Shown here in pieces: positions 39,354-64,000 of a stretch of 64,000 nt of DNA; positions within the stretch are counted from its first letter, which is position 1; every line of letters begins with the position of its first letter. Under the pieces are notes generated by a model, which did not search any database, was not told where the DNA came from, and saw only the letters and a program-made list of their open reading frames with translations. The position numbers were made by a program, and so were the translations under genes. Origin of the DNA: Cyanophora paradoxa CCMP329. Taxonomy: Eukaryota > Plantae > Glaucophyta. The DNA lies in contig QPMI01000452.1 of assembly GCA_004431415.1 (NCBI GenBank), positions 186,001-250,000 of the forward strand, given 5' to 3'.

Positions 39354-39662
39354 TCTGGGCTTTAAAACTGGATTACTGTTTAAATACGATGCATAGACAT
39401 CTCATAAATTGGCACTCTTATTACTTTTTTCAACTCGCCCTCACCTTGTTTCTGAGCGCAGCCCGCTGGCCTGCCCACGGAGATGACGAACATGCAGATC
39501 GCTGCCGCCGGCCGTACAATTCCAACACGCGTTCGGGGTGCCGGTTCTGGCACTGGTGCCGGTTCTGGCACTGGCAAGTAGGGTCGTCTCGTATTTTGCC
39601 CTTCTTCAATTTAAGCTTGTACATAGTTTTCTCTGGATTCTTTAAACCACCGTGATCATACT

Positions 39663-44073: not shown

Positions 44074-44101
44074 GCCTGCTGCTACAGTTAATGGCGTCGG
44101 C

Positions 44102-45613
44102 GTGAATCCTCAAGTTCAGCACATTGCGAGGCCATCTGCTAGCGCTGATACAGCTTCGGTCCCGGCTCCCTCGAGTTCTCGTTTGAGCTCGTCTGCCGAT
44201 GCTAGCGCTAGCGCCGCTTCTGCCTCCACATTAATATGCCCTATTTGTGGGAAGAACTTTCAGTCTTCTGCTGATCGTGACCGTCATGTTCGGGCTGATA
44301 AACATCCTGCTAACGCCCGTGGCGTTCGCCGACCTCGAACCCCCTCTAGTTCAGAGAATCCTCCAGATCCTGTGCCTCCTGCCCAGCGCCCCCGCCTCCA
44401 GTCTCCGGATCCGGCACCCCAGTGCTTGCTCCAGCTCCTGCAGCTGCGGCTACATATGCCGAGCCCCGTCAGCCTGTTCCGACTTTGCGACGGATTCGCT
44501 CCCCTGCACCCTCACCGTCGCCACCTGCTCAGCGGCTCCGTACTTCCCTGCCCCCCCTAGTCCTTCTCTGATACCTTCCGTTTCACGAATCCGCCGCCCC
44601 CGGTCTCCGTCGAATTCAACCTTGCCTCCCGATGCCGATCCGTCCCTGTCCATGTGTCTCGGCGCCTGCGGCTTTCCTCTCCTGTACCTTCGGCTTCCCT
44701 CTGGCTGTCCCGCCAGATCCACCTCGCCCGCCGGTTCCTGCATGGCCCCTTTGATTCATGATAGTCTTGTATCAATCTTCGCTTCACCTCAACTTAGTTT
44801 ACCCTCAGTTGTTTTGCCGTCACCTCCATCAGATGCTTCATCGATGTTAGTTAGGAGCACTGGCCCCTCCACCTTCCAGTTCCTCGTGTATTCCATGCCT
44901 TCCCTGTACCTTTGATTCCGTTCCCTTTGTCGTTAGCTCTGCCTCTTCCTCCTCCATCTCTCACTGTTAGCCCTCAGGCAGTTCCGCCTCTTTATCTTCA
45001 GCGACCGTCAGACCGTATAGTTTTTGGCAGCGAGTATTTTGTGTATGGTGACGTTCCTCGTGTGTACCCTTCTCTCTCTTCTACTTCGCTATATTTGCCT
45101 CTCCCGCCTGGTTCAGCCCCATCGTCTGCCTTCCCTGTCACTACTGGCTTGCGTTTCGCCCCTCCTCTTATACTGCCGATTCCGAGTCTGCACCCGAGCT
45201 CTGCCCCTTTCCTCGTGTCGTCCCCAGTTCCTCAGATTAGTCTTCAGCCGTCCATTGTTTTACCAACTCTACAATCTCGATTCCGTTTAGACACTCCGCC
45301 AGCTTCGACTTTCCCCTCTAGTGGTGTCCTACGTTTCGCCTCTCCTACTGTTCTACCGCCTTTGCCTCCTGCGACTACGTCTTCTAGTTCTGCTGTTAGC
45401 TCTGTCTTGTCGTCTTCGTCTAGATCTTCGTCTTCGACTGTAGTTCCTCGTGCTCGTTCTCCTTATTTGCTGCGTCCCCGTGCTCCTCGTCGTTCTAGTG
45501 TGACTAGTACTTCTGCATCGACGCCCTTGAGCTCTTCTACTCCTTCTCTTCGTGCTCGTTCTCCTTATCTTTTGCGTTCTTCTGATCGTGTCCCTTCTCG
45601 TGATCCCTCTTGA
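44102..45613 (+). CDS. LINE ORF3 or ORF2 C-terminal extension: C2H2 zinc finger plus Pro/Ser-rich region
   Basis: CPICGKNFQSSADRDRHVRADKH, then Pro/Ser-rich frames with RARSPYLLR twice; stop lies about 100 nt before the poly(A). Confidence 0.55.
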
Positions 45614-47170
45614 TTCTGTATATATTTTGTGCTAGTTTACTGTATCTTTGATTTGTGATTGCTTTGTTGTCTTTAATATCACTACCTACGGGGGGTTCGC
45701 CCCACCGTAGTCTCTCAAAAAAAAAAAAATTCCGGTTTTGGGCGAATTCGGCAATTTCACTCCACGGCAATTTGAGCCGTCCTACAGTATGATATACGCG
45801 CGCGGCGCGCGCGCGAGAGATCTCAGTATATATACACAGTATGATACGCGCGCGCGCGATCATCGGATCGCGATCGCGAGCTCGATCGAGTCGCCGGCGC
45901 CGCGACTCGGGGTCCACTGTCCAGGGAGTCGGGGAGTCCAGAATCACTCCGATCACGAGTCCAATGCCGCGGCGTCGCCAAGTCGACCGTCGGACGTCGA
46001 CGTGGGCGCAGTACTGTATACGCAGTACTATGACTCAGTGATAGTATGCGTACCGCGCCGCGCGCCATCGCCGAGAGTCGTACGTATACACGAGATCGCC
46101 GCGGTGCGATCGGTGAAGCTCGAAATGCATATACATCGATCGAGCGACTTGTTGACTCTGTGAGCGGCGCATGCTATACCAGTATACGTATGCGTACGCT
46201 ATACGGTAGCTAGCTATAGCTGAGGTATAGCTAAGCATAATTCAAACCGCAGCAATAGTCGGTCGCGAGCTGTGAGTCTTACTCAGTGACTTGCGACTTC
46301 GAATACCGCATGCGCAGTGCCGGTATAGCTACCGGTATAGCTTGCCTGCAACTTTGGCAAGTTAGGCTAACTTGGCAACTGTCGTTGAGTCGGAGATCGA
46401 GAGGCGATCAGCAACATCGATATTAATTCGGAGTCCCTAGTAGATCTAGACTCTCTACAGCCCCCGATCGCGTGAGCCCACGTACAAGATCGCATACACG
46501 CGTAAGGTATACGTATACGTATACGGTGCGTTGGATTCGAAGTTCATGATTCCCGAAGCTTAAGGCGCGTGCGCGTGCACATATATATATACATGTGGAT
46601 GTACATGCATATGCATACATGCATATGCATATGCATATGTACATGTCGACGTCGATGTGGATGTACATGATATCGATAAGCTTAATTATAATCCGTAGCA
46701 GCTGCAGCTGCAGCCTGCAGGCCGTTAAATTATAACAGTACTAGTGTGATCGCGAGCCCGCGATCGCGATCGAGAACTTGCACGATATGTAGAGAGTGTT
46801 CGTGTACGGTACATGCTCCATGTTTAACTAACATCGATATGTAGGCCACGAAATGGCCAGCTCGAGTTCAAAACCTGGGACACCGAGGCTGGTCCACATT
46901 CAGTCGCATCAGCTCCACCAGCCGATCGCGATCCCAGTCGATCTCAACTCGGCCTCCAGATCTTTGATTTCAGATCCGTCGTCTGTGCATATGGCCCCAG
47001 TCAACGTTGCAGAGGACTCCCGGCCGCTGGAATTTGAAGCGGCTGCAGGCCCAGGTCCGAATTCTCTGCAGGCGTATCGATTGTGATCCAGATTGAAGTT
47101 CCAATAATGTTGCGCAGCAGAACCAGATCCAGCCCCGATCGCGATCTATGAACAGAAACGTGCGCAAGCG

Positions 47171-47243
47171 ACACATATGAATATTCATATTTTAATCCCT
47201 CGGCGTTCCGCCTCAGGATTAAAATATGAATATTCATATGTGT
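47171..47243. repeat. perfect 28-bp inverted repeat with nested 16-bp palindromes at the host/virus boundary
   Basis: ACACATATGAATATTCATATTTTAATCC (47171-47198) / GGATTAAAATATGAATATTCATATGTGT (47216-47243). Confidence 0.9.
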
Positions 47244-47246
47244 GAT

Positions 47247-47960
47247 TCGATGTTATATCAATAAAATCGATTAATTTATTTGAATTTTCACATGAATTTT
47301 CATATTTTTATATGCATTTTCAATTAATTTAATCGATGTTATATCGATAAACTCGATTAATCGATATTGTATCTTAATTGTAGTTAATCGGAATTATATG
47401 AATAACTTCGATTGATCTTAATTGAAATCCTAAATGAATCTAATCGGAATTATATCAATAAATTCGATTAAATCATGTTCTTTTCCGATTAAATTATTTA
47501 AATATTTAACTTTGTTACCATAAGTGGTCTAAGTTGACTCACTTTTCATAAACATTTTGAACTCTTAGTCTCCTTGAATTTCTTAAGATGACTCAACTTA
47601 GTCAACTTAGTCAACTTTGTTACCATAATCAATCAGGGTGGACTCACTTTTAGATCAACTTTGAAATTTCAAGCAAAATCAACTTATATTTCAAAAGTGG
47701 ATCTTCTAAGTGGACTCAATATGTTCACTTTGTGATACATGTTAGCTCAAATCCTTACTGTTTATGGTCAGGGTTGACTAAGTGGGGGGAGTTGACACAT
47801 TTTTTGAAATCCTTTTTAGAAAAGTTTAGGTCCCAAATATTTCCTGTGAAATTTGAGTCAACTCAACCCACTTAGTCAACCCTCCCATTGAATTCGTAAC
47901 AAAATCCATATACTTTTACTACTTTTACGATTAATATGAGTCAACCTTGAGTCCACTTAA
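47247..47960. repeat. AT-rich non-coding terminal region with direct repeats and GT(T/G)GACT(C/A)A motifs in both orientations
   Basis: Four related TCG..TTATAT(C/G)(A/G)ATAA..TCGATT units at 47247-47470; about 10 GTTGACT/GTGGACT motifs; ~32-bp inverted repeat 47771-47802 vs 47850-47882. Confidence 0.7.
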
Positions 47961-48234
47961 ATATAAATATAATATAATAGGGGGAATCTAGGGGAGATGC
48001 TGAGTTTTATTGTAAGGAAATCGAATAGTATTCGAAATACTTTACATTGCTTAATGTAGGGTGCATTCATATTTCGGCTACATCATACAGTAGAATTCTA
48101 TTGTAACAAAAGCTACTGTAGAAAGAAAATCATTGTAGAAAGCTATTGTAGGAAAGGATATATTATATCCTTTTTTAACGATTGCCATTGTAATAAAAAA
48201 GGTAAATCACCCTGATCATCATTATAGAAACCCA

Positions 48235-48633
48235 TCAAAACGGGAATCTATCATGTTTATGTCTCTCAGTCTTCTCAAATGTAAGGAAATTCATTGTTTT
48301 ATCGATCTCATCTGCAACTGCTTGTGTTTTATGCTGAGCTTCTTTACCACAACTGAATATATCAATTGCTAACATGCCTTCATTGGAATAACAATGAGCT
48401 GTACAATGGCTTTCATCTAATAGCAGAACCAATGCAAAACCAGGAGGTGATAGTTTTCCATCAAATATCTCACAATGTTTATGAACAATCCTAATGCCTT
48501 GTCTTAATACTGCTTGTTCTAGGGTTCTCATAATCCAATTTCCAAGAAAGCTCACATGCTCATAACCTGTTGCAATAGCTGTTTTAGCCTTGTAATCAAG
48601 CATAACATGGAAGCCCCTGTATTGAGTCTCCAT
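48235..48633 (-). CDS. speD: prokaryotic-type pyruvoyl-dependent S-adenosylmethionine decarboxylase proenzyme (SpeD/SpeH family)
   Basis: GFHVMLD, PPGFALVLLLDESHCTAHCY, AIDIFSCG; E-S-H self-cleavage motif; 132 aa. Confidence 0.88.
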   Translation of the reverse strand: METQYRGFHVMLDYKAKTAIATGYEHVSFLGNWIMRTLEQAVLRQGIRIVHKHCEIFDGKLSPPGFALVLLLDESHCTAHCYSNEGMLAIDIFSCGKEAQHKTQAVADEIDKTMNFLTFEKTERHKHDRFPF

Positions 48634-48662
48634 TAAGAATACCTTAGAAAAATTAATTAAAC

Positions 48663-48935
48663 CTAATCGAACCTAATGCAAACATCCCTATATTCCACTG
48701 TGATTGATGAAGTAGTCCTTTTTCTATAAGCCTGAGAATGCTTCTTGTTGCATTCTCTGCAACCTGATCCCTTCACATGATTAAAGGGATAGGTAAGGAT
48801 CACCTTGTTACACTGCAAACATCTAACAGATACTTTCTCTTGAGCTTTGATGTAATGTGTCTCACTGTAATCGAATTTATCTTTACCATGAACTGTCATA
48901 GCAGCATCAATAAACTTTTTTGTTTTACTATCCAT
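48663..48935 (-). CDS. single Zn-ribbon module (VHG.KFDYS...CxxC...H...GCxxC), related to the 61880 nuclease
   Basis: Same repeat unit as the N-terminal part of ORF 61880-62812, without a nuclease domain. Confidence 0.7.
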   Translation of the reverse strand: MDSKTKKFIDAAMTVHGKDKFDYSETHYIKAQEKVSVRCLQCNKVILTYPFNHVKGSGCRECNKKHSQAYRKRTTSSITVEYRDVCIRFD

Positions 48936-48957
48936 ACTCTATATATAACCAATATTC

Positions 48958-49791
48958 TTATGGAGCAGTATCCTGTCCGAAAATGGGGAAATATCTATTT
49001 GTCCCATAGTACTCAGCATAGGTATTCTGCTTTGCAATAAAATCGGTTCTCTCAGCATATAATACACACTTGTATATACCAAACTTGGTGGCTCTTACCA
49101 GAAACTGATAGTCTTCCAAACCAAAATTGACTCCATGATAAGCAATCCCGAAATTATCATATGGGGTGATCACAACTGCAAAATTAGGAGTTCCACCCTC
49201 CACTTGACATACAGCATATACATCTGGTGGAATATCCACAACAACCTTGTAGTGGTCCCCAATCTCAACAAGAGAATCTACTACTGCTGTTTGTTCATTT
49301 ACAACAATTGGGAATATTTTGATTATATAGGGCGCATTCATGCTGGGGACATAGGTTCGAATTCTGGTGTTGGGATCAATGGGATTGGGTTGATCATTCA
49401 CAAATAAAGGCGCTCCAACAGCCCCACCAACCCGAAGACCATCACCAATATAAGCTCCCCCCGATTTGCAGTTAATAGCTCCCGACCTAGATTCAAAAGA
49501 ATAAGTAGACAGAGGATCTCCATAGCTATCTGGGTCTCCATAATGAGCAGAAAAGTTTGCATTGGTAACAAGTAGCTTAGTTGTCTTAACTATTCCATTA
49601 TTTTTATCACATCTGAGTTCCTGTAATCTCAGCTTGTGGGTGGAACCAAAGGTGTTCATTGTAGGTTGGACCTCTGTGGATTGGAGACCCTCTACATCAT
49701 CAAAGGTAGCATGCTGTAGAACATGGTTTGCTGGGGCAGCTAATGATAGCTGTGGTGTAATAATTCGTTCAAGTGGGGGTTGCTCAGCCAT
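48958..49791 (-). CDS. putative virion fibre/spike protein, paralogue A
   Basis: Shares ELR.DKN.G.VKTT.LLVTNANF and SGGA.IG.G.RV.G with the adjacent ORF. The structural role is inferred from context. Confidence 0.5.
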   Translation of the reverse strand: MAEQPPLERIITPQLSLAAPANHVLQHATFDDVEGLQSTEVQPTMNTFGSTHKLRLQELRCDKNNGIVKTTKLLVTNANFSAHYGDPDSYGDPLSTYSFESRSGAINCKSGGAYIGDGLRVGGAVGAPLFVNDQPNPIDPNTRIRTYVPSMNAPYIIKIFPIVVNEQTAVVDSLVEIGDHYKVVVDIPPDVYAVCQVEGGTPNFAVVITPYDNFGIAYHGVNFGLEDYQFLVRATKFGIYKCVLYAERTDFIAKQNTYAEYYGTNRYFPIFGQDTAP

Positions 49792-49814
49792 TTTACATTA
49801 AAGGGATATATCTT

Positions 49815-50669
49815 TTATGGGGTTGGGTCATCAATTACATCTAATTCTTGGTAAAATCCTGTTGTGAATATATCAGCAACATTTACCCCACGGAGTGCTG
49901 AAACAGCTGCTATATCTGTTCTCAGTCCCATAATCATAGTATTGTAAACTCCAACCTCAGTGACATACAAATCATAAGTAAATGTCAGATTGTTATAAAC
50001 ACAATATCCCCGACCAAAATGGTTGGATGCTTGAACAAAGAATAGGTAATTGTGACCTTGTTGGTTATTATTTGCTCTACACATTGAGAGCATTGCTGTG
50101 GGAAGAGGAATATTCCTTCTCACTCGATCAGTTCCTGTAATAGAAACCAATTCTGAATTTTCAAGAGTGACAGATGATGCAACATAGAAATGCAGAAAAG
50201 GTTGCTGTGCAACTGGTGTATAGAACCGAATTCTTTGTGGGTTCTCAGCATTTTGTTCAAGAGTATCTGGGACATCATTGTAGGAAACAGAGGATGAAAG
50301 CTGACCTGAAACTCTGCAACCACCACCAATAAAAGCTCCTCCTGATCTCACAGTTACAGCAGCAGAATTCTTATCGAAATCCAGGGCTTTCAGATCAACA
50401 CTGTAAGCATCAGGACCTCCATTGGTAGGTTGGAAGAAGTTTGCATTAGTCACAAGAAGTCGAGTTGTTTTCACCACACCAGAATTCTTATCAGCTCTCA
50501 GCTCTTTAACTCGAATAATCGAATTTTTATCAAAGGAGTTACCATTGGAATTGGGTCTCTCTGTGGATTCTAAACCACGAACCTCATCATTTACTTCATG
50601 CTGGCGAAAATGCATTGCAGGGGATCCAAGGGAATATATAGGCAGTTGAACTCGATTATATTCACCCAT
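49815..50669 (-). CDS. putative virion fibre/spike protein, paralogue B
   Basis: Paralogue of 48958-49791; probable ATG at 50669 (MGEYNR), downstream of a TAGTAAAAG motif. Confidence 0.5.
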   Translation of the reverse strand: MGEYNRVQLPIYSLGSPAMHFRQHEVNDEVRGLESTERPNSNGNSFDKNSIIRVKELRADKNSGVVKTTRLLVTNANFFQPTNGGPDAYSVDLKALDFDKNSAAVTVRSGGAFIGGGCRVSGQLSSSVSYNDVPDTLEQNAENPQRIRFYTPVAQQPFLHFYVASSVTLENSELVSITGTDRVRRNIPLPTAMLSMCRANNNQQGHNYLFFVQASNHFGRGYCVYNNLTFTYDLYVTEVGVYNTMIMGLRTDIAAVSALRGVNVADIFTTGFYQELDVIDDPTP

Positions 50670-50707
50670 TGCTTCTTTTACTAAGAAGGAAAGAAAAATA
50701 AACTCCA

Positions 50708-51013
50708 TCAAGCCAAAGAGATTAAATTCGATCCAAGGGATTGGTAAACAGTTGAAAGAACTTGTAGGTTGGATGTCATTGCTTTAATGTTGTTATCACA
50801 CTCATTGTATTTGGCAACAGGGTCACCATATGCAGCTTGAGCAAGGACATTAACCAATAGAGACTTATACTCATTAACAACTGGTGAGAGCTTGTTGGTT
50901 TGCTGAATCGTTTTTTCAACTGTTTGCAGTGCGTTTACAAGCTTGATTGTATCAAAAGCAAGAGCAACAGGCTCAGTAGAATAGGAGGTTCCACCAAGTG
51001 GATAGGTCGCCAT
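50708..51013 (-). CDS. viral hypothetical protein (101 aa)
   Basis: ATG-initiated ORF packed tightly between viral genes. Confidence 0.6.
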   Translation of the reverse strand: MATYPLGGTSYSTEPVALAFDTIKLVNALQTVEKTIQQTNKLSPVVNEYKSLLVNVLAQAAYGDPVAKYNECDNNIKAMTSNLQVLSTVYQSLGSNLISLA

Positions 51014-51016
51014 TTA

Positions 51017-54000
51017 TTATACTGTGACATTTTTAATTTGGTCTATTTGATATTGTAGACTCTTGCATTTCTGAGACAACTCCTTCACAGCCTCTATGAG
51101 AACTGGAACCAATCCTGTGTATTCAAGAGATAGATAACCATCATCTGGTTTCACATTCACAATCTCTGGTATAACCTTTTGGACATCTTGTGCAATTAAA
51201 CCTAATTTCGCTCCATCTTTCTCATTTCCAATTCGTTTAAAACTCACTCCTTCTAATTTCTCAATTGCTGAAAGAGCGCCTGTTATCTTTTTGATATCAG
51301 TTTTGTATCTTATATCACTTGCTTGTGTTAGATAACCTCCTATCCACATCCAACCCCCATGATACATGTAACAAATATCAGTATCTTGTTCATTTCGGAA
51401 TACAAGGGGAATATCTCCCCTTCCTTTCAAATATGTAGAACCATTGTTACCGAAATGAATTCGATTATATCCATCACTGGAATTAAACCAACTTCCCACA
51501 GTGCCTGTTAAAAGATTTGGTTTACTATAAACATTATTCCAATGAATATAACCGGTGTGACCTCCATAACTATGTCCAACCCAAATTTTCATGTAACTTA
51601 TACCCATAATATGAACTCTTCCAATCTTTGGTCTAATCCGAATAGTCAAAAATCGATTACCGAGATGTATAGGAACATTATTTAAACCGCTGTGGTTACT
51701 GTCAGGAGATGTGGCGTATGGTTGATAACTATTCACTGATGTAATAAAAACTTCATTTCCTTGTCGATTTACTCCCCAAATTTCAAAAAGTCGTGAGTTT
51801 GTCCAAGGTAGATAAGTTAAAAACGCTGTTCCTGTGTGATATCCTTCTGGAATATCGAAGTCAATCCAAGCGGTAGAAGTTTGGTCATCATATTGCTTAT
51901 TATAAACGTAAGAACCATAATTATAATATGGATCCCATGATGAACTCCATGCCCACTCCCAATCGTTATAAGAACATCTATTAAATTCAATACCTCCTAC
52001 TGCTTTATCTACTGTGTGAAACTTTGGGACATCATTACCGTTTATTTGGAGTTTGGTGGTTGCATTAATAGTAGGTGCTGTAATAGTATTATTCACCCAA
52101 AAGTTACCATTGTTATAAGATTTTAAAATGGCTGTATCTGCTGAGTTTCTGAATTCAATTGACACACCATCACCATTTGGTCTCCCTCGTATATATGTGC
52201 AATCGCCATTACCAAACCAAATTCGTTCTACTGCATCTGTTGATTTTAACCATGTATTTGTTGCCCATGTTGCCGTTCCTGGGAGGTCTGCGGCTGAATA
52301 AAATGACGGTTTACTAAAAATATTATCCCAACTGAGAAAACCAACCTCATTATCAGTTGCTCTTTGTCTACTCCAACCAAAAACCCCTGTGAGATGAATG
52401 CGACCTTTTCGACCTTGAATATAAATATATTTGTAAAACTCACAATTAATTGAGACAAACAAGATAGTATTATTTGTTCCATCATGATTAACTGACTGTA
52501 TTCCTTGATAATCATTTACTCGTTTTAAGAAATGTTGATATCCATTAGTTGTTTGCCCATAGATATCGAAATATCTGCCATTATACCAAGGCATATGCTG
52601 AATATAAAATGATTTCATGCCTGTGGGGACAGTCCACCTCATAAAGCAACCACTACAGTCCTCATCATTTTGTGGTGTTGTATAACATCCTGTTTGTCCT
52701 GTTCTTGGTGACCAATTCAAAGTCCAATTATTTGCGCTGCGATCTGTCGAAACACTATCTAATTGATCAAATTCGAAACCTTTCGGTATTGTGGTTCCAC
52801 CAATTTGTAGAGTGGTAGCATTCACAGTTCCATTGACAGTTCCACCTGAAAGAGGTAAATAATTTGCAAGAGCTGTTGTTAACTCTGCATCTGTTGTATA
52901 GCTGCTTAAATCTGCTGTAGTAAGATACCCTTTATTGGTAAGGTAATCATCTGTGACCACACCTGAAAGGGTGGTATTGTGTAAGTTCTTTGCTGCCATC
53001 CTCTGATTGACTTCTAAGGCTCCACCTGATGTCGTTTTAATCCATGCAATCTCACATTTCCCATGATCATCTGTGGGTTGTCCTGCAACTGGAAGGTAGT
53101 TTACAACTTTCTCCTTGTAAACACAATTTTAGGTCTTGCTCCATCATATGGGTCTTGATCTGTTACATTAACTTGAATTGCTGCTGAAAAATTGGCTACT
53201 TGTCCTGTTTCTCCTGGGTGATAATTCGTTACATAGATACTGGGGAAAGTATCATTAACTCCCACATTAAAATCGCCATCATAATCTCCATTAACAATTG
53301 GATCCCTGGGTAATCTTACTGCAAGAGTTCCCTCCATTGGAGTGCCTGTTTGACCTGTAAAAGACCCATTGAGACTTACATAATGATCATTCAAAAATAG
53401 TCTTTCAGGTGTATTACTCGATTGGTAAAGTGTGACTCCATTAAAAACGTTTCCAATTGCATTCAATTGTGCGAAAACTGGCTGGTCATCAATTTCTTCC
53501 CATGGGTGCCTGTGGTTGCTATTTGTAATCTCTGAATAATCATGAGTGTGTGAATCTGGTGGAAAGGTTAATGGTGGATTCGTGATATGCTCCCATAAAT
53601 GTGTATGGGCGAAATCTGTTATTTGATCTTTTGTGTGAGTATGGGCAAAATCTGTTATTTGATCTTTTGTGTGAGTATGTGCGAAATCTGTGATTTGATC
53701 TTTTGTGTGAGTATGTGCGAAATCTGTAATATCCGCTTTTGTGTGTTTTTGGTTTGCTAACCAATCTAAGACAACATTAGAAGTAGGATGATGTGGAAGA
53801 TTTGCATTTTCGGTAACTGTGAGATTTTCAATAAATACATTGCTCGAATTAATTTTAAGATCTTCATTATTCAATACGGGCTGCGTATTCGGAAATCCAT
53901 ACAATAATTGTATATAATATCTAACCGCGTTCTTTTCTTCAATAGATAACGCACGATTGAAAACGATAATTTCGGCAAGATCTCCATTAGCAACAGAAGA

Positions 54001-56831
54001 ACCAAATGATGCAAAATTAGAAGGTGGAAGAAAATCACCCGATGATGTTCCAATATCAAATCCACCCATTCCTACGACAATTTGCTCTGAGGAAACAGTG
54101 AAATCCCAATAATTCCACGAATTATAAGTATATGATGCATCGAATAATGGAGGAGTTGCATTTTCTATATCGTTTTGAATTTGTAGTGAAACACCAAACT
54201 TTTGATTTTTACAACCATATCCAATCCAATTTTGATAAGAACTATCCCTTATACTCAACATATAAGAAGGATTTGTTGTATTGATCCTACCTATAAAGAA
54301 TAATGTAAGACCTAATGACCAATCTATTGAAACACTATTCCTATAAGCCATGTTTAATTCTTTCCCAATCGAAATTTGATTGTTCAGGGTTGCATTCAAA
54401 TAATAATAAACAGTTTCCCAATTTGAATAATTTGTAAGATATGGTATCTGTGTAGTAACTCTGTTATATATCTGACCTTGATAATATATCAACTGACCAT
54501 GTTGACCTGATGCTTTCCATGCAAATATACAATTTGGAATAATTGGGGCTGGATCAATGACAGTAGTAACAGCATAGTAAGGTCTATAAAGTATTTGTAT
54601 AGTGTTTTGTGTTCCGATTGTTATATTTCGATACACTGTAAGATTACTTGTGTAAATATCATCTGCCCATAGTTTTCTTGTCCAAATGTTACTTGCCCAT
54701 AGGTTACTTGTATAAAGGTTACTGGTGTAGATATTGGAAGTGACTGTAAGGTTTGTGTCATTTTTGATCACAAAAAGAGAAAGAATATTTGTGAGTTCAC
54801 CTTCATCAATATATCCTTGCTCTTCTAGATAATCCTCTGTGACTACTCTCGAAATGCTCTCATTGTGTATGTTTTTTGCAGCCATTCTTTGATTGGCTTC
54901 AAGAACCCCACCATAATTCGTTTTAATCCATGCAAGCTCTGCCCTTCCATAATTATCATTTGCAGTTCCCACTATGGGAATGTAGGAATACTTATCTCGA
55001 CTGAAAACTATCATTGGTCTTGAACCATCTAAACTGCTTACATCTGCTACATGAACCTGTATAGCAGAGTTGTAATTTTGGTAGGTTGCTGGATCTGTTG
55101 GGACTCTGAATGTATCTGTGGGAATGTCAGCCTCCATGTAGCTTGACACAAAGATATTTGGTATGGTTGCTCCTGGTGGTGGTGGGGTTTCAAAAGAGCC
55201 TGGTAATGTCCTAATATGAAGTGGTCCTCTCATAGCTGAATTTGCAAGTGTCCCATTCACATGAACATAGTGTTCATTCAAAAAGATCCTTTCAGGGACA
55301 TTGCAAGTCTGGTAAAGAGAAACCCCTAGGGTTGCCAAAGGCTCCACTTTTGCAAACTCTGGTTGGTCATTAATCTCATCCCAAGTGTGTTCATGTTTGA
55401 TTGGTGGAAATTCTTCTGGTATTCCATCAATTTCTCCCCAATCATGCCTGTGATCCTCTGGTGGATACTTTTGAGGTTTGCCTAAGATCTCATCCCAATC
55501 ATGATTGTGATCCTCTGGGGGATACTTTGCAGGTTTATTATTAATTTGTTCATAATCTGGAAAGAATTCCCAAATCTCTGGGCGAAATCCATCAGGTAAT
55601 AATTCTTCATGGGGTTCATATGGTTGCTCATAATCAACAGCTGGTGGATCATGACCATCTGGTAAATACTCCTCATCAGGTTCATAGTTCTGCTCATACT
55701 CAAACTCTTGTGGATCTAAGCCATCTGGTAGTATCTCCTCCTCATTGGGATCATATTGATCGTATTCATATTCTTGTGGGTCAAAACCATCTGGTAAATA
55801 TTCTTCCTCATCTGGAACGAATTGATATTCATCAAGCTCTAATATATCGACTTCAGGAGGTAAATACTGCTCATCTATTTGCTTTCTGGTTCAATTATAG
55901 GTTTATTGCGAACTTGCTCCCAACTCACAATATGCTGCCCAAAGGCTACATCTTCAGTTGCTGTGTATTCTCTTCCAGGCTGCTTCTTTGGTGTTAAATC
56001 GGGAGGTCCATTGGGAAATGGAATAGGGAATGGGACAGTAGGTCCATTGGGACCATAATGCTCAATGATTTCTCTTAGGGTTTTCTCACTAACAAGCTTC
56101 TCACCATTTGCATACACATTGCTGCCATGGATATTTCGCCATTGCCTGGTTCGAATTCCAAGGTCTTTCACATTGCTATACAAAGGCAAAAGGTGCCTAT
56201 CCATTTCGACTAGATCAGGATGTAAATGGATTGCTACTGGTTGACTGGGGCTACTGTTGATTGTAATTGATGGCTTTTTTTGATGGACATCTTTTGGAGT
56301 AAAAAACCCAAAAGGCTCATTCCTCGCAAAGTCATATGTAATATCCTTGGGGTATACATCATTTGTGTAGGAGACCTGATTTGTATTGGCAATGGGACCC
56401 ACTTGCAATACTTGGGGGACCTCAGCTTTTGCAGTGCTGCCCTCATTGTAAATTCGCAAAGCTGTGTTCTGTTTGCCCTGCTCATCTTGAACATTGAAAA
56501 TCAATCGACCACTATCAAACCTGGAAGGTATATCTGGATGGGTGCCACTGGTTTTTAGTTTCCTAGGTCTCCTTCTTGTTGCTTTGATCTCTGCCACTTG
56601 GTTTGCTTTCACATTACCCAAACTAAAAGCAACACTGACATCCTCTTTATCTGGATCGGTTTGATTCACAGATAAAGCATGCTCCCTTGATTGAGTCTTT
56701 GATGAATTATCAGAGCTGTGGTCAATTGAAACTGAACCCTTTACTTTAATATTATCAAAGTTCACATGCTTGGTGCTGCTTGCATTATCATCTTGAATGG
56801 TTTCTAGATTGGGTGGGTAATTGAAGCTCAT
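51017..56831 (-). CDS. giant fibre protein (~1,940 aa) with C-terminal peptidase S74 chaperone; 2 frameshifts
   Basis: ORFs 55875-56831, 53101-55347 (frame open upstream to ~55880) and 51017-52999 join if one base is restored near 55885 and near 53113. Contains HTHTKDQITDFA repeats, a LamG-like GDLAEIIVFNRALS motif and the S74 motif SDIRYK..GLIAQDV..LIEAVKEL. Confidence 0.8.
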
Positions 56832-56874
56832 GGCTTTTACTATATGGATTTATAAAATTCCTGATAAGTAAAAG

Positions 56875-58429
56875 ATGCCTCTCAAGGTCGCTTTAGCTTT
56901 ATCAGGGGGAGGTGCAAGGGGCATTATCATAACCAGGCTGCTAAAAGAAATCGAAAATCGAACTGGCAGGAGAATAATCGATCTTGTGGATCTTGTGAGT
57001 GGAACTTCCACTGGTGGGATCATTGCAATAGGTTTGAATATAAGGCATCCTGATAGACCAGGTGAACCTAAACTGACAGCAAACGATTTACACAATATTT
57101 ACCTAACTCAACTGCCCTTGATTTTCGCAAATCCTCGAAATATAATCGAAAATGCCCTTTTTAATACAAAGTATGATGTGGGACCCTTGGAGACTGCAAT
57201 CAATTCAGTTACTGGTGAATCACTAATACAGGATTCCCTAAAGGACATTGTGATTACATCCTTTGATACTCAGAATATGAAACCAATATTTATCACAAAT
57301 GATAACAATTACAACTTTATGCTTGTAAGATTGCTGCTAGGGCTACTTCTGCTGCTCCTACATATTTCTCTCCTGTAAGCATTGTTGATTTCAATCGGGG
57401 AGTATTTGTCTGTCTCATTGATGGTGCCATTTCGGGAAACAATAATCCCAGTGTGTGTGGTTACAGCCATGCAAAGAAGATTTACAGTGATGATGATGAT
57501 ATTATAGTAATAAGCATCTCTTGTGGAGAGGTAGACCCACATTTAGAGTCTGACTATGTGGGTTATGCTTATGAGACTGTGAACAGCTGGGGCATTCTCT
57601 CATTGATTGCCTCAACAGATGGAAGCCCATTGATTAACATGCTCATGGCTGCAAGTGAGCTTTCTGCCCTTGATAAATGGAGGAGTTGTTACCCTACAAC
57701 TATGATCAGGATTATGGGAGATACTACAGGCTATCAGTCCCTCTTCCGAATCACATAGTAAGCTCCCTGGATGACACTTCTAAAATCCCAGATATGCTTT
57801 CTTTCACAGAAACATACATAGCAGCAAACAATGATATGATTAATAAGCTTTGCAGCCTTCTAGTAGCAAACTATGAACTAAAGAACCCTACAAAGGCTTA
57901 CATCTCATCCACTCTCACTACATCACCACCTTTGGATGCTAATTGGTATCAGCTTGCAGATGATGCCTTTACTGCCTCATCCTCTGTGACAGGTAAAGAG
58001 CCTTTCATGGCTAGACCTTCAGCATTTGGCTGGGAAGCTGGAGCCTATGCTCCTGAGCAGATATGGGAAACCCCCACTGAATACCTTCAAGTTGCTTTCC
58101 CATATACTTTTGAACTCTCTTCTGTGATTGCCTATGGATCAGGGGACACCAATGCTTTTATTAAGACTTTCAATGTGGCAACATCCACTGATGGGATCAA
58201 CTGGTCTTTTATTCGATCAGATGGGCAGAACAAAATATATGTCTGTGAGAACATTAACAATGCTCACAACTCAGGTGATGTGGCTCTATTGAGTGGATTT
58301 CCTCTCAGCATCAAGGATGCTTTTTACATAGGTTATTCTCTGAGAATCAAGTATATTCGCATTTATCCCCTTGTGTATGTGAATGCTCCCACAATGAGAG
58401 TTGACTTTACAGGTGCCTTTATTCGATAA
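56875..58429 (+). CDS. patatin-like phospholipase fused to a discoidin (F5/8 type C) domain; 2 frameshifts
   Basis: LSGGGARG, GTSTGG, ATSAAPTYF, LIDGA; C-terminal FTASSS..EYLQVAF..STDGINW..YIRIYP..MRVDF. Confidence 0.8.
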
Positions 58430-59348
58430 ACTCCAACTGAAAAGAATTATCGATTCCATTCATATCAATCAGTTCACCAAAGTAATCTTTAAACTCCACA
58501 GTGAGTTCCCTTATCACCAGGTTTCTGTCATTGATTTGAATAAATTCTGCATGTTCACCACTATGGTAAACATAGCCCCCTATATCTTTACTCAATTGCA
58601 ATCTAAGGATAGCTCCCTGATTTTGTGGTTGCGATTTTGGAATTATATTGTGTCTGCTGGCAAAGGGGGACAGCTCTTTAATATGCATGTACAGATACTG
58701 CTCAGCATTCATATCAGACATCTTCCTGCTGTCAAAATAATATTGCAAGGGCTTAGAGGAGAGTCTGGGTCCTGAGAAGGTGATTCCCCATGCTGGGTGA
58801 TCAGGTGTAATAGGTTTGCCATCATACTTTAACAGGTTCTCAGGTCGATAGGGTGATCCACCAACAGGAGGAGTGCTATAATACCCATTGGTGTATTCAG
58901 TAGAGCTGACACCCAAAAGCTTCCCTATTCTCTGGTTGCTTGCAATAAAACGAACTCATGGTTACTGTAAAACTCCACTTTATAGGTTGTTGGGTTGTAG
59001 AATATCTTGAACTCAAAAAACACAGTTTTATCTGCAATTGTTTGGAAGCTTGAATAGTTCAGCCCATAATTATAAGGGTGTGTGACCCAAAATGACCCTG
59101 GTTAATGTAGCCACTGGGAAGGGATACACTTTCTGTGTGATGATTTCATTGTATGAACCATCTTGGTAATTAAACTGAACTGTTAGATGATCAGTTCCCA
59201 CACTGTTATAGATACTGTTTGGAATCTCTGCATAGAGAACCCTGCATTCCCTTGGTCTCTCTACTGGAGTTGTGAGAGTGACCCTGTAAGAGTTTTCATT
59301 TTGTCCTTGGCTTCTATCCCTGCTATCAATATTAACAAGTCGATTCAT
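58419..59348 (-). CDS. minor capsid (penton-like) protein 1; frameshifted
   Basis: N-terminal VNIDSRDR..YRVTL..AEIPNSIYN and C-terminal LTVEFKDYFGELIDMNGIDNSFQLEF, typical of single-jelly-roll pentons. Confidence 0.75.
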
Positions 59349-59377
59349 TTTAATATATAAATATAGATAAAAGAAGA

Positions 59378-60386
59378 ATGCCTGTGGATTACATCGAGGT
59401 TAGCTCATTTAATACAATCTCTGGTGATGGTCCACATCAAGCTTTGTGGCTAGACTCCCCAGTAGTTATGAGAATGTGAGGGCTGTGAGACTGGTCTCAG
59501 CCGAATTTTATAACAGCATCCCTATGGTGAGTGGTGAAACCAAAGCAGGAGATGTCACAGTTGATAACACATTTAGTATTTATTATTCGGAACAAACTCC
59601 AGGAGCTGGAAGCTCAGGAATTCCAACAACTCGCCCAGCTGCTGATTTTGAACAATGGAAACAATTCATGGTAAATCGCGAGACCCCCATCCAAAGCCAC
59701 CAACAGCTGGTGAATGTAATCAACTCAAAATTCATTGGCAGAACTCCCCAACCATCCATTCGCTGCAAATGGGATGAGTCACTGAAACGAATTATATTCC
59801 ACTCGGCAGTGCCTTTTTACCTGGCTTTCTCACTTGCTGTAAACCCAAGCCAACAAACAATCCAAAAGCTATTGAGTTCAGCTAGACTGCTTGGTCTTGA
59901 TCCTGGAAGATATGGGAATTCCCCAATCAAATCCAAGTTTATGATGCTCTCACTGATGGAATCTTTACTGATGGTCGAGTGAATGGCATTATATCTTCTT
60001 TTGAGCCTGAGAAGACCAGGGACAGTGTTTTGTTTGTGAGAGTAAAGGAGCTGGGTGATCTGGTGCAATGTGGGGATGGTCTCTTAACTGGTTACTTCCA
60101 TAAAATAGTGGTCCCTGACAAAGATTATGGTGAGCATGTAGTTTATAATTCAACAGAGGCTCATCCACTTTACAAATACTATAATAAGAAGGTTGGATTA
60201 TCCACTTTTTCGGTTGATATTGTTAATGCTGTAAATGAACCAATTGATTTTGAGGGTCAACCTGTTCATCTGACCTTTGAAATTCGCTATGGTGATGAGC
60301 CAGCTGGGGACCCAGTTTATGAATACTTTAAGATGAGAATGTCACAGCTTCACCCTTCCTATCCAGTTATTACAAGCTTCGCATAA
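59378..60386 (+). CDS. minor capsid (penton-like) protein 2; frameshifted
   Basis: LPSSYENVRAVRLVSAEFYNS and LSTFSVDIVNAVNEPIDFEGQPVHLTFEI mirror the penton motifs. Confidence 0.65.
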
Positions 60387-60439
60387 ATTAAGGATCATTG
60401 GTAGATTTTTTATGTTGCAGTATAATAAAAGAGAATATA

Positions 60440-61809
60440 ATGGATATCACTTCCACTCTTCAAAGACTTTCGCTGAAAGAAGCCCTAACAACCCCAGAGG
60501 AGGCGAAAGCCTTTTTCCTGGATAACTCCCTTATGCTTGGTCTCGAATCCAAGTCTAAGCCAGTTCTAGTTGTTGTGAATCCCAGCAATACTTTTGAGAA
60601 TAATGTAGGAAATCGCATTTCCTTCAAGCTACCTCGCTACAATTTCTGTGGAAAACTCGAACTTGCTTTCGACCTTCCAGCTATTACTTTTGCTGGTGAT
60701 ACTGACCTAGTTCGAAATGGATACACTCGCCCTGTCGGTGCTTTAGTTCAGCGACTTGAAATTACCTATGGATCTTACACCTACCACATCCCCTCTGATT
60801 TCCTTGCTCATTTCCCCCTGGTCTATTACTCGGAGGATCAACTAGCTAAAAAGAAACGCTCAATGGGCATGGTTCATGGTATCCCTGCTCATGGAACTAA
60901 CCGACTTGGTGGCTCATTCTTTGTTGAAATCCCAGTGCCTTGGCTAAATCACTATCTTCCCCTTGGTGCTTTATCTGGTGAAATGGTTGTTACTGTTTGG
61001 TTTAAGGATGCTGACAAGGGTTATGTCGAAACTTCCTATGGTGGTCGTGGTCTTACTGTTGCAGCAGCTGATGTAGATTATTCAAAAGATGATGGTCTTG
61101 GAACTGCCCCTGCTGAAACTGTTCTGGCAAATGTTGGTCAAAACATCACAGACTTTACTCTTGGTGCAACAACCCCTGTCATTTCTATTACTTCTCCTCG
61201 CCTTTACATGCATGCTATTAATGTTTCTGATGAGCTTTTCGCTACTGTAATTGAAAAGGTTAAGACTACTGGCATGGCTATTCCTGCTCTAGACATTGGG
61301 TTTGTTGATGCTAGTGCTTTCCTGCCAAGGGCAATGCCCAACCCAATCGAATTAACCTCTCTCAAATCTCAGGTCTTGTATATGCTCTGCTTGTTTCAGT
61401 TCGTGATAATGCAACTGTTGACAAAGCCACTGGCTCCCACAGTGTTCTTAAGACCTATGCCAACTCCAAAGAGATAACATTCACAACTGAAATAAATGGT
61501 CAGCGACTTTTTGCCACTGAGCCAATTTCCCTACTCAAAGGTGCTGAGCTAATTGCTGATGCCTTCAAATGCTCTAACATGGATAAGGTTGCTGATCGCT
61601 ATGTCCTTTCAGGATTGCCTTTCTGCCTTGATGGAGAAAAGGCGATTCGAAATATTGCCCAGTCTGGTTATGTTGATTTAACAAATTCCTCCTCTTCATT
61701 CCTCACCCTCTACATGCCTTCAGATAAGGTAATCGATGTTAATGTTCGCGCTCTCATGCATAGCTTTATTATTGTCGACAAAGATGGTTTACGCAGAATT
61801 AATTTATAG
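60440..61809 (+). CDS. double-jelly-roll major capsid protein, NCLDV-like (~455 aa; 1 frameshift near 61370-61390)
   Basis: ISFKLPRY..KLELAFDLP, GALVQRLEITYG, VEIPVPW..YLPLGAL.GEMVVTVWF, and C-terminal PFCL..QSGYVDL; lies next to the pentons and the ATPase. Confidence 0.8.
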
Positions 61810-61879
61810 ATTGTTACGATATATCGTAAGGCATTTAAGGAAAAAGTGATTATTTATTTTTGAAAACATTTAAAAGTCA

Positions 61880-62812
61880 ATGTCGCATACTCGTGAAACT
61901 TTCATAGCCAAGGCTATTCAGGTCCATGGTGAAAAGTATGATTATTCGAAAGTTGAATTTCATGGGGTAATGAAGAAAATTACTATAGTCTGCAGAATTT
62001 GCAACACTGAGTTTATTCAAGCTGCCCATAGTCACATAAACTCTAAATGTGGCTGTCCAGCTTGTGGGAATATCAAAAAAGGAAAATCGCATAGGTTGAC
62101 TCAAGATGAGTTTGTTGAAAGGGCCAAGCAGAAACATAAAGATCTGTACGATTATTCGGAGTCTGTTTATATAAGGACAGATGACCCTATAACAATTTTC
62201 TGCAAGAAATGTCAGGAATATTTCACTCAAAAGCCACACAAACACATGCAAGGAGATGGGCATGCAAAATGTAAAATGGATCGCATCAAAGATAAGTTGC
62301 AAATGGGGATTGAGAAGTTTACAGAGAGGGCATTAAAACTCTACGGGGATAACTATGACTTATCTAAAGCTGAGTATGTTAATGCAAGAACAAAAGTTAC
62401 CATTATCTGTAAGAAGTGTGATCTTGAATTCAAAAAGACACCAAGCGATTTTCTCAATGGGTATGGCTGTCTGTCATGTAGATCGTCTATTGGTGAGACG
62501 AAAGTTCAAGCAGCCCTAAAAGAAATTGGTTTAGACTTCTCAATATCCCACAGATTTCCTGATTGCAAGCATAAAAGAGTTCTCCCATTCGATATTTATA
62601 TTCCATCTCTCAAAATTGCAATTGAATATGATGGTATACAACATTTCAAACCTGTGGAACAGTTTGGAGGTCAGAAGGCCTTTGAAGATACCCAAATTCG
62701 TGATGGAATTAAAAATCGGTACTGTGAAGCTAATAATATCAAACTCCTAAGAATCCCATTCACCGAAACTGATATTGAGGGCTGCATTAAACGATTTCTA
62801 TCTCACCTGTAA
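61880..62812 (+). CDS. Zn-ribbon-repeat PD-(D/E)xK (Vsr/DUF559-like) endonuclease
   Basis: Three FI.KA..HG..YDYS..CxxC modules, then LPFDIYIP..IAIEYDGIQHF..RD..KN.YC..IKLLRIP. Confidence 0.8.
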   Translation: MSHTRETFIAKAIQVHGEKYDYSKVEFHGVMKKITIVCRICNTEFIQAAHSHINSKCGCPACGNIKKGKSHRLTQDEFVERAKQKHKDLYDYSESVYIRTDDPITIFCKKCQEYFTQKPHKHMQGDGHAKCKMDRIKDKLQMGIEKFTERALKLYGDNYDLSKAEYVNARTKVTIICKKCDLEFKKTPSDFLNGYGCLSCRSSIGETKVQAALKEIGLDFSISHRFPDCKHKRVLPFDIYIPSLKIAIEYDGIQHFKPVEQFGGQKAFEDTQIRDGIKNRYCEANNIKLLRIPFTETDIEGCIKRFLSHL

Positions 62813-62865
62813 ACCATTTTCAGTCTCCCTGCATTATTTTTATCTGTCTCTTTATAGAGAGAACC

Positions 62866-63648
62866 ATGAACGATTTGGATGAATTTGTGGCTGGTGAAAT
62901 GATTAATCCCCCTTTTCGAGTCCTAGCAATTGGTAAATCAGCAACTGGTAAATCAGAAGCTGTAAAGTATTGGTTGAAGCAACTGCATGATGCCAAAAAG
63001 ATTGATGTTGTATTAGTTGTGAGTGGGACTAGCTTCAATCATTTCTGGGATAAAGTGGCAACACTGCAACTGGGAAAGTGGGATGCCCCTTACATTGCTA
63101 AATTGCTAGATGAGAGGCAAGAGAAAATAGAAAAGGGCGAACCTGTTAACCAATTGTGTGTTGTTCTAGATGATTTAATCGATAATGAGATAGTAGATTT
63201 GACCAGGGATAAAATAATTGGATCTTTGTATTCCAGAGGTCGCCATTCGAAAATATCCATTATCTGCATCACACAAAAGCTAAGGAAAGTCTCTTCGACT
63301 ATTCGAGTTAATTCGGACTATGCTATGTTTTTAAGTGCTGCAAATCGCAAAGAACTTGAAGCCATAGAGGAAGAATACAATATAATGCGAGATAAGGATG
63401 CTTTCTATAAACTATTTGAGGAATATGTACATTCTTATCAGTTTCTGATCTGGAGTTCTGCTGATTATTCGGTTAAATACTATGTAGATAAAGCCGACCT
63501 TGTCAAAGATTTCCCATTTCCTCGCTTCCACAGGAAACCCAAAAAGAAAGAAGATGAACTGAAACCACCAGAGAAAGAGGAAGCCCCCAAAGAAGTTAAA
63601 AGCCAAGTTCATACTAATAAATTGATGCGATATAAGCGCGGTTTATAA
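62866..63648 (+). CDS. A32-like (FtsK/HerA) genome packaging ATPase
   Basis: Walker A GKSATGKS, Walker B CVVLDD, RGRHSKISIICITQ, IRVNSDY. Confidence 0.92.
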   Translation: MNDLDEFVAGEMINPPFRVLAIGKSATGKSEAVKYWLKQLHDAKKIDVVLVVSGTSFNHFWDKVATLQLGKWDAPYIAKLLDERQEKIEKGEPVNQLCVVLDDLIDNEIVDLTRDKIIGSLYSRGRHSKISIICITQKLRKVSSTIRVNSDYAMFLSAANRKELEAIEEEYNIMRDKDAFYKLFEEYVHSYQFLIWSSADYSVKYYVDKADLVKDFPFPRFHRKPKKKEDELKPPEKEEAPKEVKSQVHTNKLMRYKRGL

Positions 63649-63676
63649 AATTATCTCTCATTCTAATAAAGATACA

Positions 63677-64000
63677 ATGCCTCCAAACGAAAGATAGGGA
63701 TCCCAGCTGGGGCTGTTGCTATTCAGGTGGTGGAAACAATGGATCCATCAACACAGACCCACTGAAGTTCAATGGTATGAATGAGGTGAAGCCCTCACAA
63801 CAACAAGAAGACCCCCTCAATGCTGCCTATGAAGAATCATTCGATGACAAAGCCCCACAGGCTTCAACCAGTGACCAACTCAATATCTCACCAGAAGCTT
63901 CGAAAATGAAGGCTGTTGCAGAGGGTGCCAGGCGAATTATTGGTGCTGCTGATGATAAAGGTTTAGGCTTACAAGATCTTTCACTTACCCGCAAAGGTGA
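63677..64000 (+). CDS. partial viral ORF (truncated by the window, likely frameshifted)
   Basis: ATG at 63677 after TAATAAAG; an open frame runs to the window edge. Confidence 0.4.

Follow-up and report, generated by a model that had tools for sequence, protein, structure and literature searches.

The right-hand part of the 64,000-nt stretch of Cyanophora paradoxa CCMP329 DNA analysed here (contig QPMI01000452.1, positions 186,001 to 250,000; hereafter the window) consists of 16.8 kb of virus-derived DNA (47171-64000), which reaches the window edge and comprises one arm and one end of an integrated element. As stated in the original prediction, which was made from the letters alone, this AT-rich DNA abuts host sequence: the GC fraction is 0.385 over 47171-64000 vs 0.636 over 1-47170, the drop being located at 47.0-47.2 kb. 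The arm is densely packed (Table 1), with 98% of 48235-64000 being coding and intergenic gaps of 70 nt at most.

Matches above the Pfam cut-offs were obtained for Pox_A32 (E 2.5e-10), Patatin (1.9e-13), F5_F8_type_C (5.4e-7), Peptidase_S74 (1.7e-15) and AdoMet_dc (1.3e-11; AdoMet, S-adenosylmethionine), so that the A32 ATPase, the lipase and the metabolic enzyme that had been proposed are borne out, and PHROGs matches added tail-fibre and homing-endonuclease families. The lipase is part of a patatin-discoidin fusion protein in which the patatin motifs GGGxRG, GxSxG and DGA were all found. A fibre is present as well, although not the several fibres first proposed: there is one frame of 1938 codons, with tail-fibre repeats and a duplicated module (48% identity over 75 aa), together with two short paralogues of 277 and 297 aa. 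Both paralogues (48958-50708) contain a glycine-rich motif that we take to resemble fibre repeats; the 277-aa protein, for which no match was found in Pfam, NCBIfam or PHROG, is possibly a short spike, and the 297-aa protein had no usable Atlas match. On the other hand, the two pentons of the original prediction could not be confirmed, the best match being DUF5901 at E 0.087, with no PDB match for either and no Pfam family match for the second candidate. Searches of the window arm rendered no cysteine protease and no polB, D5, RNA polymerase or VLTF3 of the giant-virus type; the partial gene at the window edge matched no Pfam, NCBIfam or PHROG family, and no tRNA or Rfam RNA was detected. A TATA-like motif, a pattern picked post hoc, was found upstream of 6 of the 14 starts vs 2% of random 40-mers. 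The 101-aa gene (51013, -) and the capsid gene (60440, +) share an 11-mer immediately 5' of their starts, and a second 11-mer is shared by the upstream regions of the lipase gene and the last gene (63677), which might point to a late promoter.

Table 1. Features of the element and of the adjoining host DNA, with the positions at which reading frames are one base short
Feature	Positions	Strand	Basis	Breaks
Element end: 35-bp inverted repeat, 3-nt loop	47171..47243	.	identical 16-bp palindrome in each arm	
Non-coding sub-terminal region	47244..48200	.	two blocks of short repeated motifs; no Rfam match	
AdoMet decarboxylase homologue, prokaryote-type, pyruvoyl, 132 aa	48235..48633	-	PF02675 E 1.3e-11; ESH self-cleavage motif aligned to solved proenzymes	
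Zinc-binding protein, 90 aa, one endonuclease-like repeat	48663..48935	-	30-32% identity to endonuclease repeats; PHROG matches	
277-aa protein, paralogue of 297-aa neighbour	48958..49791	-	34% identity over 254 aa	
297-aa protein, paralogue of 277-aa neighbour	49815..50708	-	34% identity over 254 aa	
Small protein, 101 aa	50708..51013	-	11-mer upstream in common with capsid gene	
Giant modular fibre, 1938 codons	51017..56831	-	PF13884 C-terminal S74 chaperone; fibre PHROGs	within 53101-53130 (frame and internal homology); 55887 (contigs)
Patatin phospholipase-discoidin (F5/8 C) fusion, 518 codons	56875..58429	+	Pfam	57321; 57676 (frame open with X)
Putative penton 1, ~310 codons	58419..59348	-	DUF5901 E 0.087 only; penton call by eye	58952; 59085; one in 59086-59147 (frame analysis)
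Putative penton 2, 336 codons	59378..60386	+	penton call by eye	59431; 59933 (frame open with X)
Major capsid protein, 456 codons, predicted double jelly-roll of giant-virus type	60440..61809	+	relative P0001 and its fold model	61320 (read-through protein 456 aa, as P0001)
Optional free-standing homing endonuclease, 310 aa, unbroken	61880..62812	+	phrog_559 E 4.8e-73; skipped in some copies	
A32-type packaging ATPase, 260 aa, unbroken	62866..63648	+	PF04665; Walker A, Walker B, RGRH; relative P0002 at 83%	
Further gene, beginning only	63677..64000	+	open over 108 codons with X	63682; 63717 (frame open with X)
Unique host flank, GC 0.53	45744..47170	.	CpG observed/expected (o/e) 1.48	
Host LINE (long interspersed nuclear element) retrotransposon, outside virus	38008..45729	+	Exo_endo_phos, RVT_1, weak zf-RVT, poly-A tail	

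The end of the element folds into a 73-nt terminal hairpin (47171..47243), with a predicted DNA fold energy of -30.7 kcal/mol (z -8.8) that none of 200 shuffles matched; poxviruses and phycodnaviruses have hairpin ends. Inwards of the hairpin, AGTCMAC occurs 10 times in 47501-47970 (21 per kb vs 0.25 per kb in the remaining element), and TCGATT occurs seven times within 47171-47500. Judging from their sequence, these sub-terminal repeats are likely to be an origin or protein-binding sites.

Insertion sites, copies and reading frames

The junction was searched for in the assembled contigs of three DNA-type sequencing runs of different years (X1, X2 and X11). The flank 45744..47170 is represented in each by one contig with 0 differences (depth 39, 88 and 19, respectively), and junction contigs carrying the window flank with 0 differences were found in the three runs, reaching 26-27 nt into the element, which is below the 31 letters of our junction-bridging rule; a stop at this point is what one would expect of unique DNA running into a repeat. 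The element ends at 47171, and at least 8 distinct other flanks (15 of 16 rows) are attached to the same end, joining it at 47167-47171, a count that reaches 10 if one mixed row and one matched via the second hairpin arm are included. The doubt that had been raised about a chimera at 47171 is answered by these contigs and by the presence of the same end elsewhere. The window might also have contained the edge of a large giant-virus insertion, since the right end of the element lies outside the window, giant-virus insertions have been reported in C. paradoxa, and the junction contigs enter the element only shortly; but the gene set is compact and of the polinton-like virus (PLV) type, the same end is found at many flanks and the window junction is identical in the three runs, so that such an insertion, or a chimeric assembly, appears extremely improbable.

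The ratio of the depth of a single element contig to that of the flank was 66 in X1, 67-71 in X2 and 94-103 in X11, values that do not equal copy number, as AT-rich DNA may be over-covered, and that we read as a family of tens of copies. Because the same end is found at the other flanks and contig depth is ~65-100 times that of the unique flank, the window element is one member of a many-copy family, and its precise end at many sites would imply the action of an integrase. The integrated small virus of the original prediction is thus upheld, by this shared end and by a giant-virus-like capsid (see below), but not as a lone recent integration, since what is found is a resident family whose CpG loss suggests that the lineage has long been exposed to host methylation. 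One contig, present in X1 and X2, matches the end over its outermost 36 nt (to 47206) and then leaves for sequence that is not in the window; it may represent the other end, a variant or a sister family. Three longer contigs agree with the window in the orientation of the hairpin, short contigs being uninformative on flip-flop. A preference for targets preceded by CG, seen in about half of the listed flanks, is not claimed, since the listing favours window-like flanks. Terminal and internal depth are about equal, which would speak weakly against the two ends sharing a long identical repeat, but this was not used. Contigs of presumed RNA runs cover the end and some genes, yet also the flank and non-coding DNA, and were not taken as proof of expression.

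Copies differ in their gene content as well as in their sequence. Deep contigs of X1, X2 and X11 join ~61763-61821 to 62813-62819, and the endonuclease between the capsid and ATPase genes is therefore an optional homing gene; in the fibre, some copies lack segments 51631-52085 and 53808-54701 or carry other sequence in their place. The CpG o/e ratio is 0.52-0.81 in these variable fibre blocks vs 0.18-0.27 in core blocks, which suggests that fibre modules have been recently swapped. Over the whole element CpG o/e is 0.37 and TpG 1.35, vs a CpG o/e of 1.13 for host DNA and of 0.92 for the neighbouring LINE, and at codon junctions core genes retain 0-6 CpG vs 13-22 expected, the LINE having 29 vs 31 expected. 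C. paradoxa has been reported to methylate CpG, with viral genes enriched among the methylated genes. Because of this methylation and of the CpG loss, the viral lineage has likely been resident in the nucleus for long, while single insertions may be young.

Among the 40 best-supported of 702 variants, 38 were scored (two were omitted, one lying between genes and the other at the end of the endonuclease) and 31 of them are synonymous vs an expected fraction of 0.28; some of the scored variants are linked, so that the p-value is overstated, the excess being nevertheless large. The genes in which these variants fall are those of the fibre, the lipase, the putative pentons, the capsid and the ATPase. 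Their mostly synonymous nature, together with fibre modules that vary among copies as would be expected if receptors matter, argues against a transposon that has a capsid but whose spread is now confined to the genome. The high copy number, the long nuclear residence denoted by CpG loss and the lack of a free relative in viral and metagenome scans would fit such a transposon, which we nevertheless consider very unlikely.

A total of 12 reading-frame breaks were located, each one base short (Table 1). The four that had been placed near 53113, 55885, 59443 and 63687 are real and single-base, the last three being located by contigs at 55887, 59431 and 63682, but eight more had been missed. Runs of two or three identical bases are found at 6 of the 10 breaks supported by contigs. 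At those 10 breaks, contigs of X1, X2 and X11 contain one base more than the window (12 of 51 rows); at 61320, the extra base is present in all of the X2 depth (5046.2 of 5046.2). When X is placed at the breaks no nonsense codon is left, the resulting frames being of 1938 aa for the fibre, 518 for the fusion protein, 310 and 336 for the putative pentons and 456 for the capsid. Three frameshifts are also present in the neighbouring LINE, and two of them are of this one-base type. Frameshift artefacts have been documented in other protists by Bellas et al. (2023, PMC10120064), and a public long-read C. paradoxa assembly, which is not necessarily the source of the window, was produced with PacBio RSII, Canu and Quiver followed by majority-rule correction.

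It could also be the case that the family is alive and the window copy is a truly pseudogenised fossil. Twelve breaks within 16 kb are many, the contigs that fill them may derive from other copies, and hundreds of sites differ from those copies. However, all 12 breaks are of the same type, without nonsense codons or larger losses, the ATPase, the endonuclease and four small genes are unbroken, and the X2 depth at 61320 is uniform, so that we regard a fossil copy as unlikely. Most of the breaks are likely assembly errors and the window copy is probably intact. Because breaks are filled in contigs and variants are mostly synonymous, the family itself is, as far as sequences tell, likely functional.

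With regard to the adjoining host DNA, the LINE is near full-length (endonuclease, reverse transcriptase and an open reading frame with a C2H2 finger), read depth over its 3' tail is very high, and no CpG loss is seen in it although host repeats have been reported to be methylated. The flank 45744-47170 is rich in short self-complementary words. Three tandem arrays lie in 16620-19547, with units of 172, 207 and 179 nt whose neighbours are 96-99% identical, and a duplication of at least 300 nt with 97% identity (24429-24728 and 27296-27595) is located in a host gene region.

The capsid and its relatives

The capsid of the original prediction was confirmed through its nearest relative, P0001, a protein labelled as Cyanophora paradoxa in EukProt and the sole relative in a word-based search (456 aa, 57% identity; 54% and 64% over its two halves), the window capsid itself rendering no match by Pfam or PDB sequence search. 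The fold was tested on P0001. A single-sequence model reached a predicted local distance difference test score (pLDDT) of only 34 and was set aside, and the model built from an 8-row alignment (pLDDT 66.6, predicted template-modelling score 0.72) was compared by VIA Z with 48,161 representative chains. The capsid of Paramecium bursaria chlorella virus 1 (PBCV-1) scored Z 27.5 (root-mean-square deviation 3.4, 331 aligned), faustovirus 26.9, African swine fever virus 23.3, PRD1 18.3, Sputnik 14.5, mavirus 13.8 and the adenovirus hexon 7.8. Sputnik and mavirus ranked under eight giant-virus or poxvirus chains and three prokaryotic-virus capsids, and the model thus does not resemble a capsid of the virophage type. 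Foldseek searches of the PDB and BFVD gave the same order, the top BFVD match being unnamed and an adintovirus model appearing at rank 45, and in the Atlas P0001 is near clusters (score 0.98) with Capsid_N in 12-18% of their members. The capsid is therefore predicted, from the model of its relative, to be closer to those of Nucleocytoviricota than to those of virophages. This is what had been proposed by eye, and it stands with respect to virophages; with respect to PLVs and Mavericks the comparison is thin, as it consists of that one adintovirus model.

A scan of 1.84 billion representatives rendered six matches. One of them, the bacterial repeat protein P0004, was discarded as spurious; the others are P0001 itself, three metagenome proteins (27-30%) and P0003 (38%), so that true capsid relatives beyond P0001 are four only, at 27-38%; a profile search gained no further relative. 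The ATPase search yielded one relative (P0002). Scans of IMG/VR with the capsid, P0003, P0009, the ATPase and the terminal motif, of JGI metagenomes and of INPHARED, in all of which only close relatives would be detectable, gave no match. The capsid family thus appears isolated in sequence, in accordance with the poorly described lineage that had been proposed. Four unnamed metagenome capsids from ENA (P0005, P0006, P0007 and P0009), 24-30% identical to P0001 and on contigs of up to 11.9 kb, are the only relatives found outside the host's family and provide a lead to free members or to members from other hosts.

Proposed life cycle and comparison with known systems

The gene set, the sharp end at many sites, the coding selection among copies and the CpG loss were observed. 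We consider it probable that the element is an integrated, many-copy Cyanophora virus with a predicted giant-virus-like capsid that is likely still making particles, and whose breaks are mostly assembly errors. The giant fibre and the discoidin domain would bind surface sugars and the patatin lipase would breach a membrane during entry, roles also proposed in PMC12220804. Viral DNA would enter the nucleus and integrate at sites unrelated to one another, the most likely agent being an rve integrase encoded in the missing arm; rve is favoured because it is carried by 85 of the 156 glaucophyte elements in that paper and a tyrosine recombinase by 0. The host would silence the element by CpG methylation. 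When active, the element would be replicated by a protein-primed polymerase or a helicase of the missing arm, starting at the terminal hairpin and the repeats, the A32 ATPase would pack the genome and the AdoMet decarboxylase would supply polyamine, with about even odds that a helper giant virus is required. By analogy with two homologues from giant viruses for which this has been shown, the decarboxylase would most simply feed the synthesis of spermidine, although some phage homologues have switched substrate.

Several points weigh against this interpretation, besides the limits on depth and on scored variants given above. The fold rests on the P0001 family (pLDDT 66.6, 8 rows), Atlas recognition of P0001 is low (1773), no PLV or polinton capsid is among the PDB rows, and giant-virus capsid matches by HHpred are reported to be frequent for many unrelated protist elements. 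The identity of the putative pentons comes from position, size and a motif seen by eye, their mutual alignment having an E of 0.03. No replicase or integrase motif was found within the window arm, and both functions are borrowed from published counts that pool several families. Two breaks were placed by frame, with no filling row among the 12 of 51 listed, and the contigs pool many copies and drop rare variants, being silent on the intactness of this copy.

A bolder proposal, which we hold to be doubtful, is that of a deep lineage of small integrating viruses proper to glaucophytes, located at the base of giant viruses, active, hairpin-ended and evading CpG silencing. Evasion would proceed by shedding CpG and, hypothetically, by an anti-silencing role of the AdoMet decarboxylase, which would deplete the methyl donor while yielding an inhibitor of methyltransferases; decarboxylated AdoMet has been described as a competitive methylation inhibitor (PMC2933235). 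If true, this would be a glaucophyte virus, no isolate of which was found among the papers listed by our literature search, and also a link, amenable to culture, between PLVs and giant viruses. Whether giant viruses descend from small PLV-like ancestors is still unsettled, and the groups put forward as links come mostly from metagenomes alone, with no host attached (10.64898/2026.06.19.733378). A giant-virus-type capsid, copies under selection and a host in pure culture with a known methylome make it testable.

The outline of the family is already known. Bellas et al. (2023, PMC10120064) listed 366 C. paradoxa capsid matches, 272 and 94 in two unnamed clusters, including in their Table S2 P0001 and a closer relative; gene_64235 begins almost identically to the window capsid, and by eye 43 of the first 48 residues of a listed C. 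paradoxa capsid match it. According to our tally of the Table S6 columns of PMC12220804 (Bulzu et al. 2025), in which several families are pooled, the 156 glaucophyte elements include AdoMetDC in 66, lipase in 89, S74 in 37, pPolB in 49, a D5-type helicase in 40 and PIF1 in 34, whereas polinton/PLV capsid models match 2 and the protease 0; its text describes a patatin-discoidin fusion and mentions AdoMetDC also in cryptophyte PLVs. The cargo is therefore not unusual for this host, contrary to what had been proposed. Mriyaviricetes-related regions in a glaucophyte assembly have been named in a 2026 preprint, and relatives of a virus with PolB and integrase were reported in C. paradoxa contigs by Starrett et al. 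(2021), with no established tie to the window family. Our searches of literature text, beyond which figures, bioRxiv supplements and subscription papers may hold maps, rendered no genome description of the family. What is new here is the fold test, the 73-nt terminal hairpin with origin-like repeats, the strong CpG loss and the swapped fibre modules.

The endogenous viruses of C. paradoxa in PMC10120064 and PMC12220804 share with the window element the capsid family, A32, lipase, discoidin-patatin, S74 fibre and AdoMetDC, but in the accessible parts of these papers they are counted only, without a genome description, end structure, selection or fold test. Features of PLVs in the broad sense are found in the element, namely a double jelly-roll capsid (in the model of the 57% relative) and an A32 ATPase above cut-off with its motifs intact. 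Gezel-14T/Aquintoviricetes PLVs, Maverick-Polintons and virophages have the same size class, S74 fibres, lipase and integration into protist genomes, but against the P0001 model the Z of virophage capsids is half of that reached by giant-virus capsids. The Mriyaviricetes (yaravirus and Pleurochrysis endemic viruses, PMC11253617) share the giant-virus-type capsid and the A32 ATPase, and have a minor capsid protein to which the putative pentons may correspond. A true mriyavirus, that is, a dwarf nucleocytoplasmic large DNA virus (NCLDV) with HUH nicking at the hairpin, rolling replication and VLTF2/3 and RuvC in the missing arm, would account for the capsid type and the strong terminal hairpin, and the 2026 preprint points in the same direction. 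We consider it quite unlikely, however, since no HUH, VLTF2, VLTF3, RuvC or helicase match was found over the 16.8 kb with Pfam, NCBIfam and PHROG profiles, mriyavirus-specific profiles being outside the scope of these searches. Known members, with genomes of 35-45 kb, are described as lacking integration genes and a DNA polymerase, whereas the end of the window element is precise at its many insertion sites and rve and pPolB are frequent in glaucophyte elements (PMC12220804). The element is not proven to belong to the Mriyaviricetes, and an integrating group such as the Zora- or VC218-like viruses is the likelier placement. Zoravirus VC102, VC134, VC218 and Zephyr (10.64898/2026.06.19.733378, whose accessible text mentions neither Cyanophora nor glaucophytes) are likewise PLV-sized, with a giant-virus-like capsid and ATPase, rve or tyrosine recombinase integrases and, in some, a lipase; with the profiles used here, neither Mriya48 nor HUH was seen in the window arm. 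The window element would work like an integrating PLV, with a capsid predicted to be of the giant-virus type.

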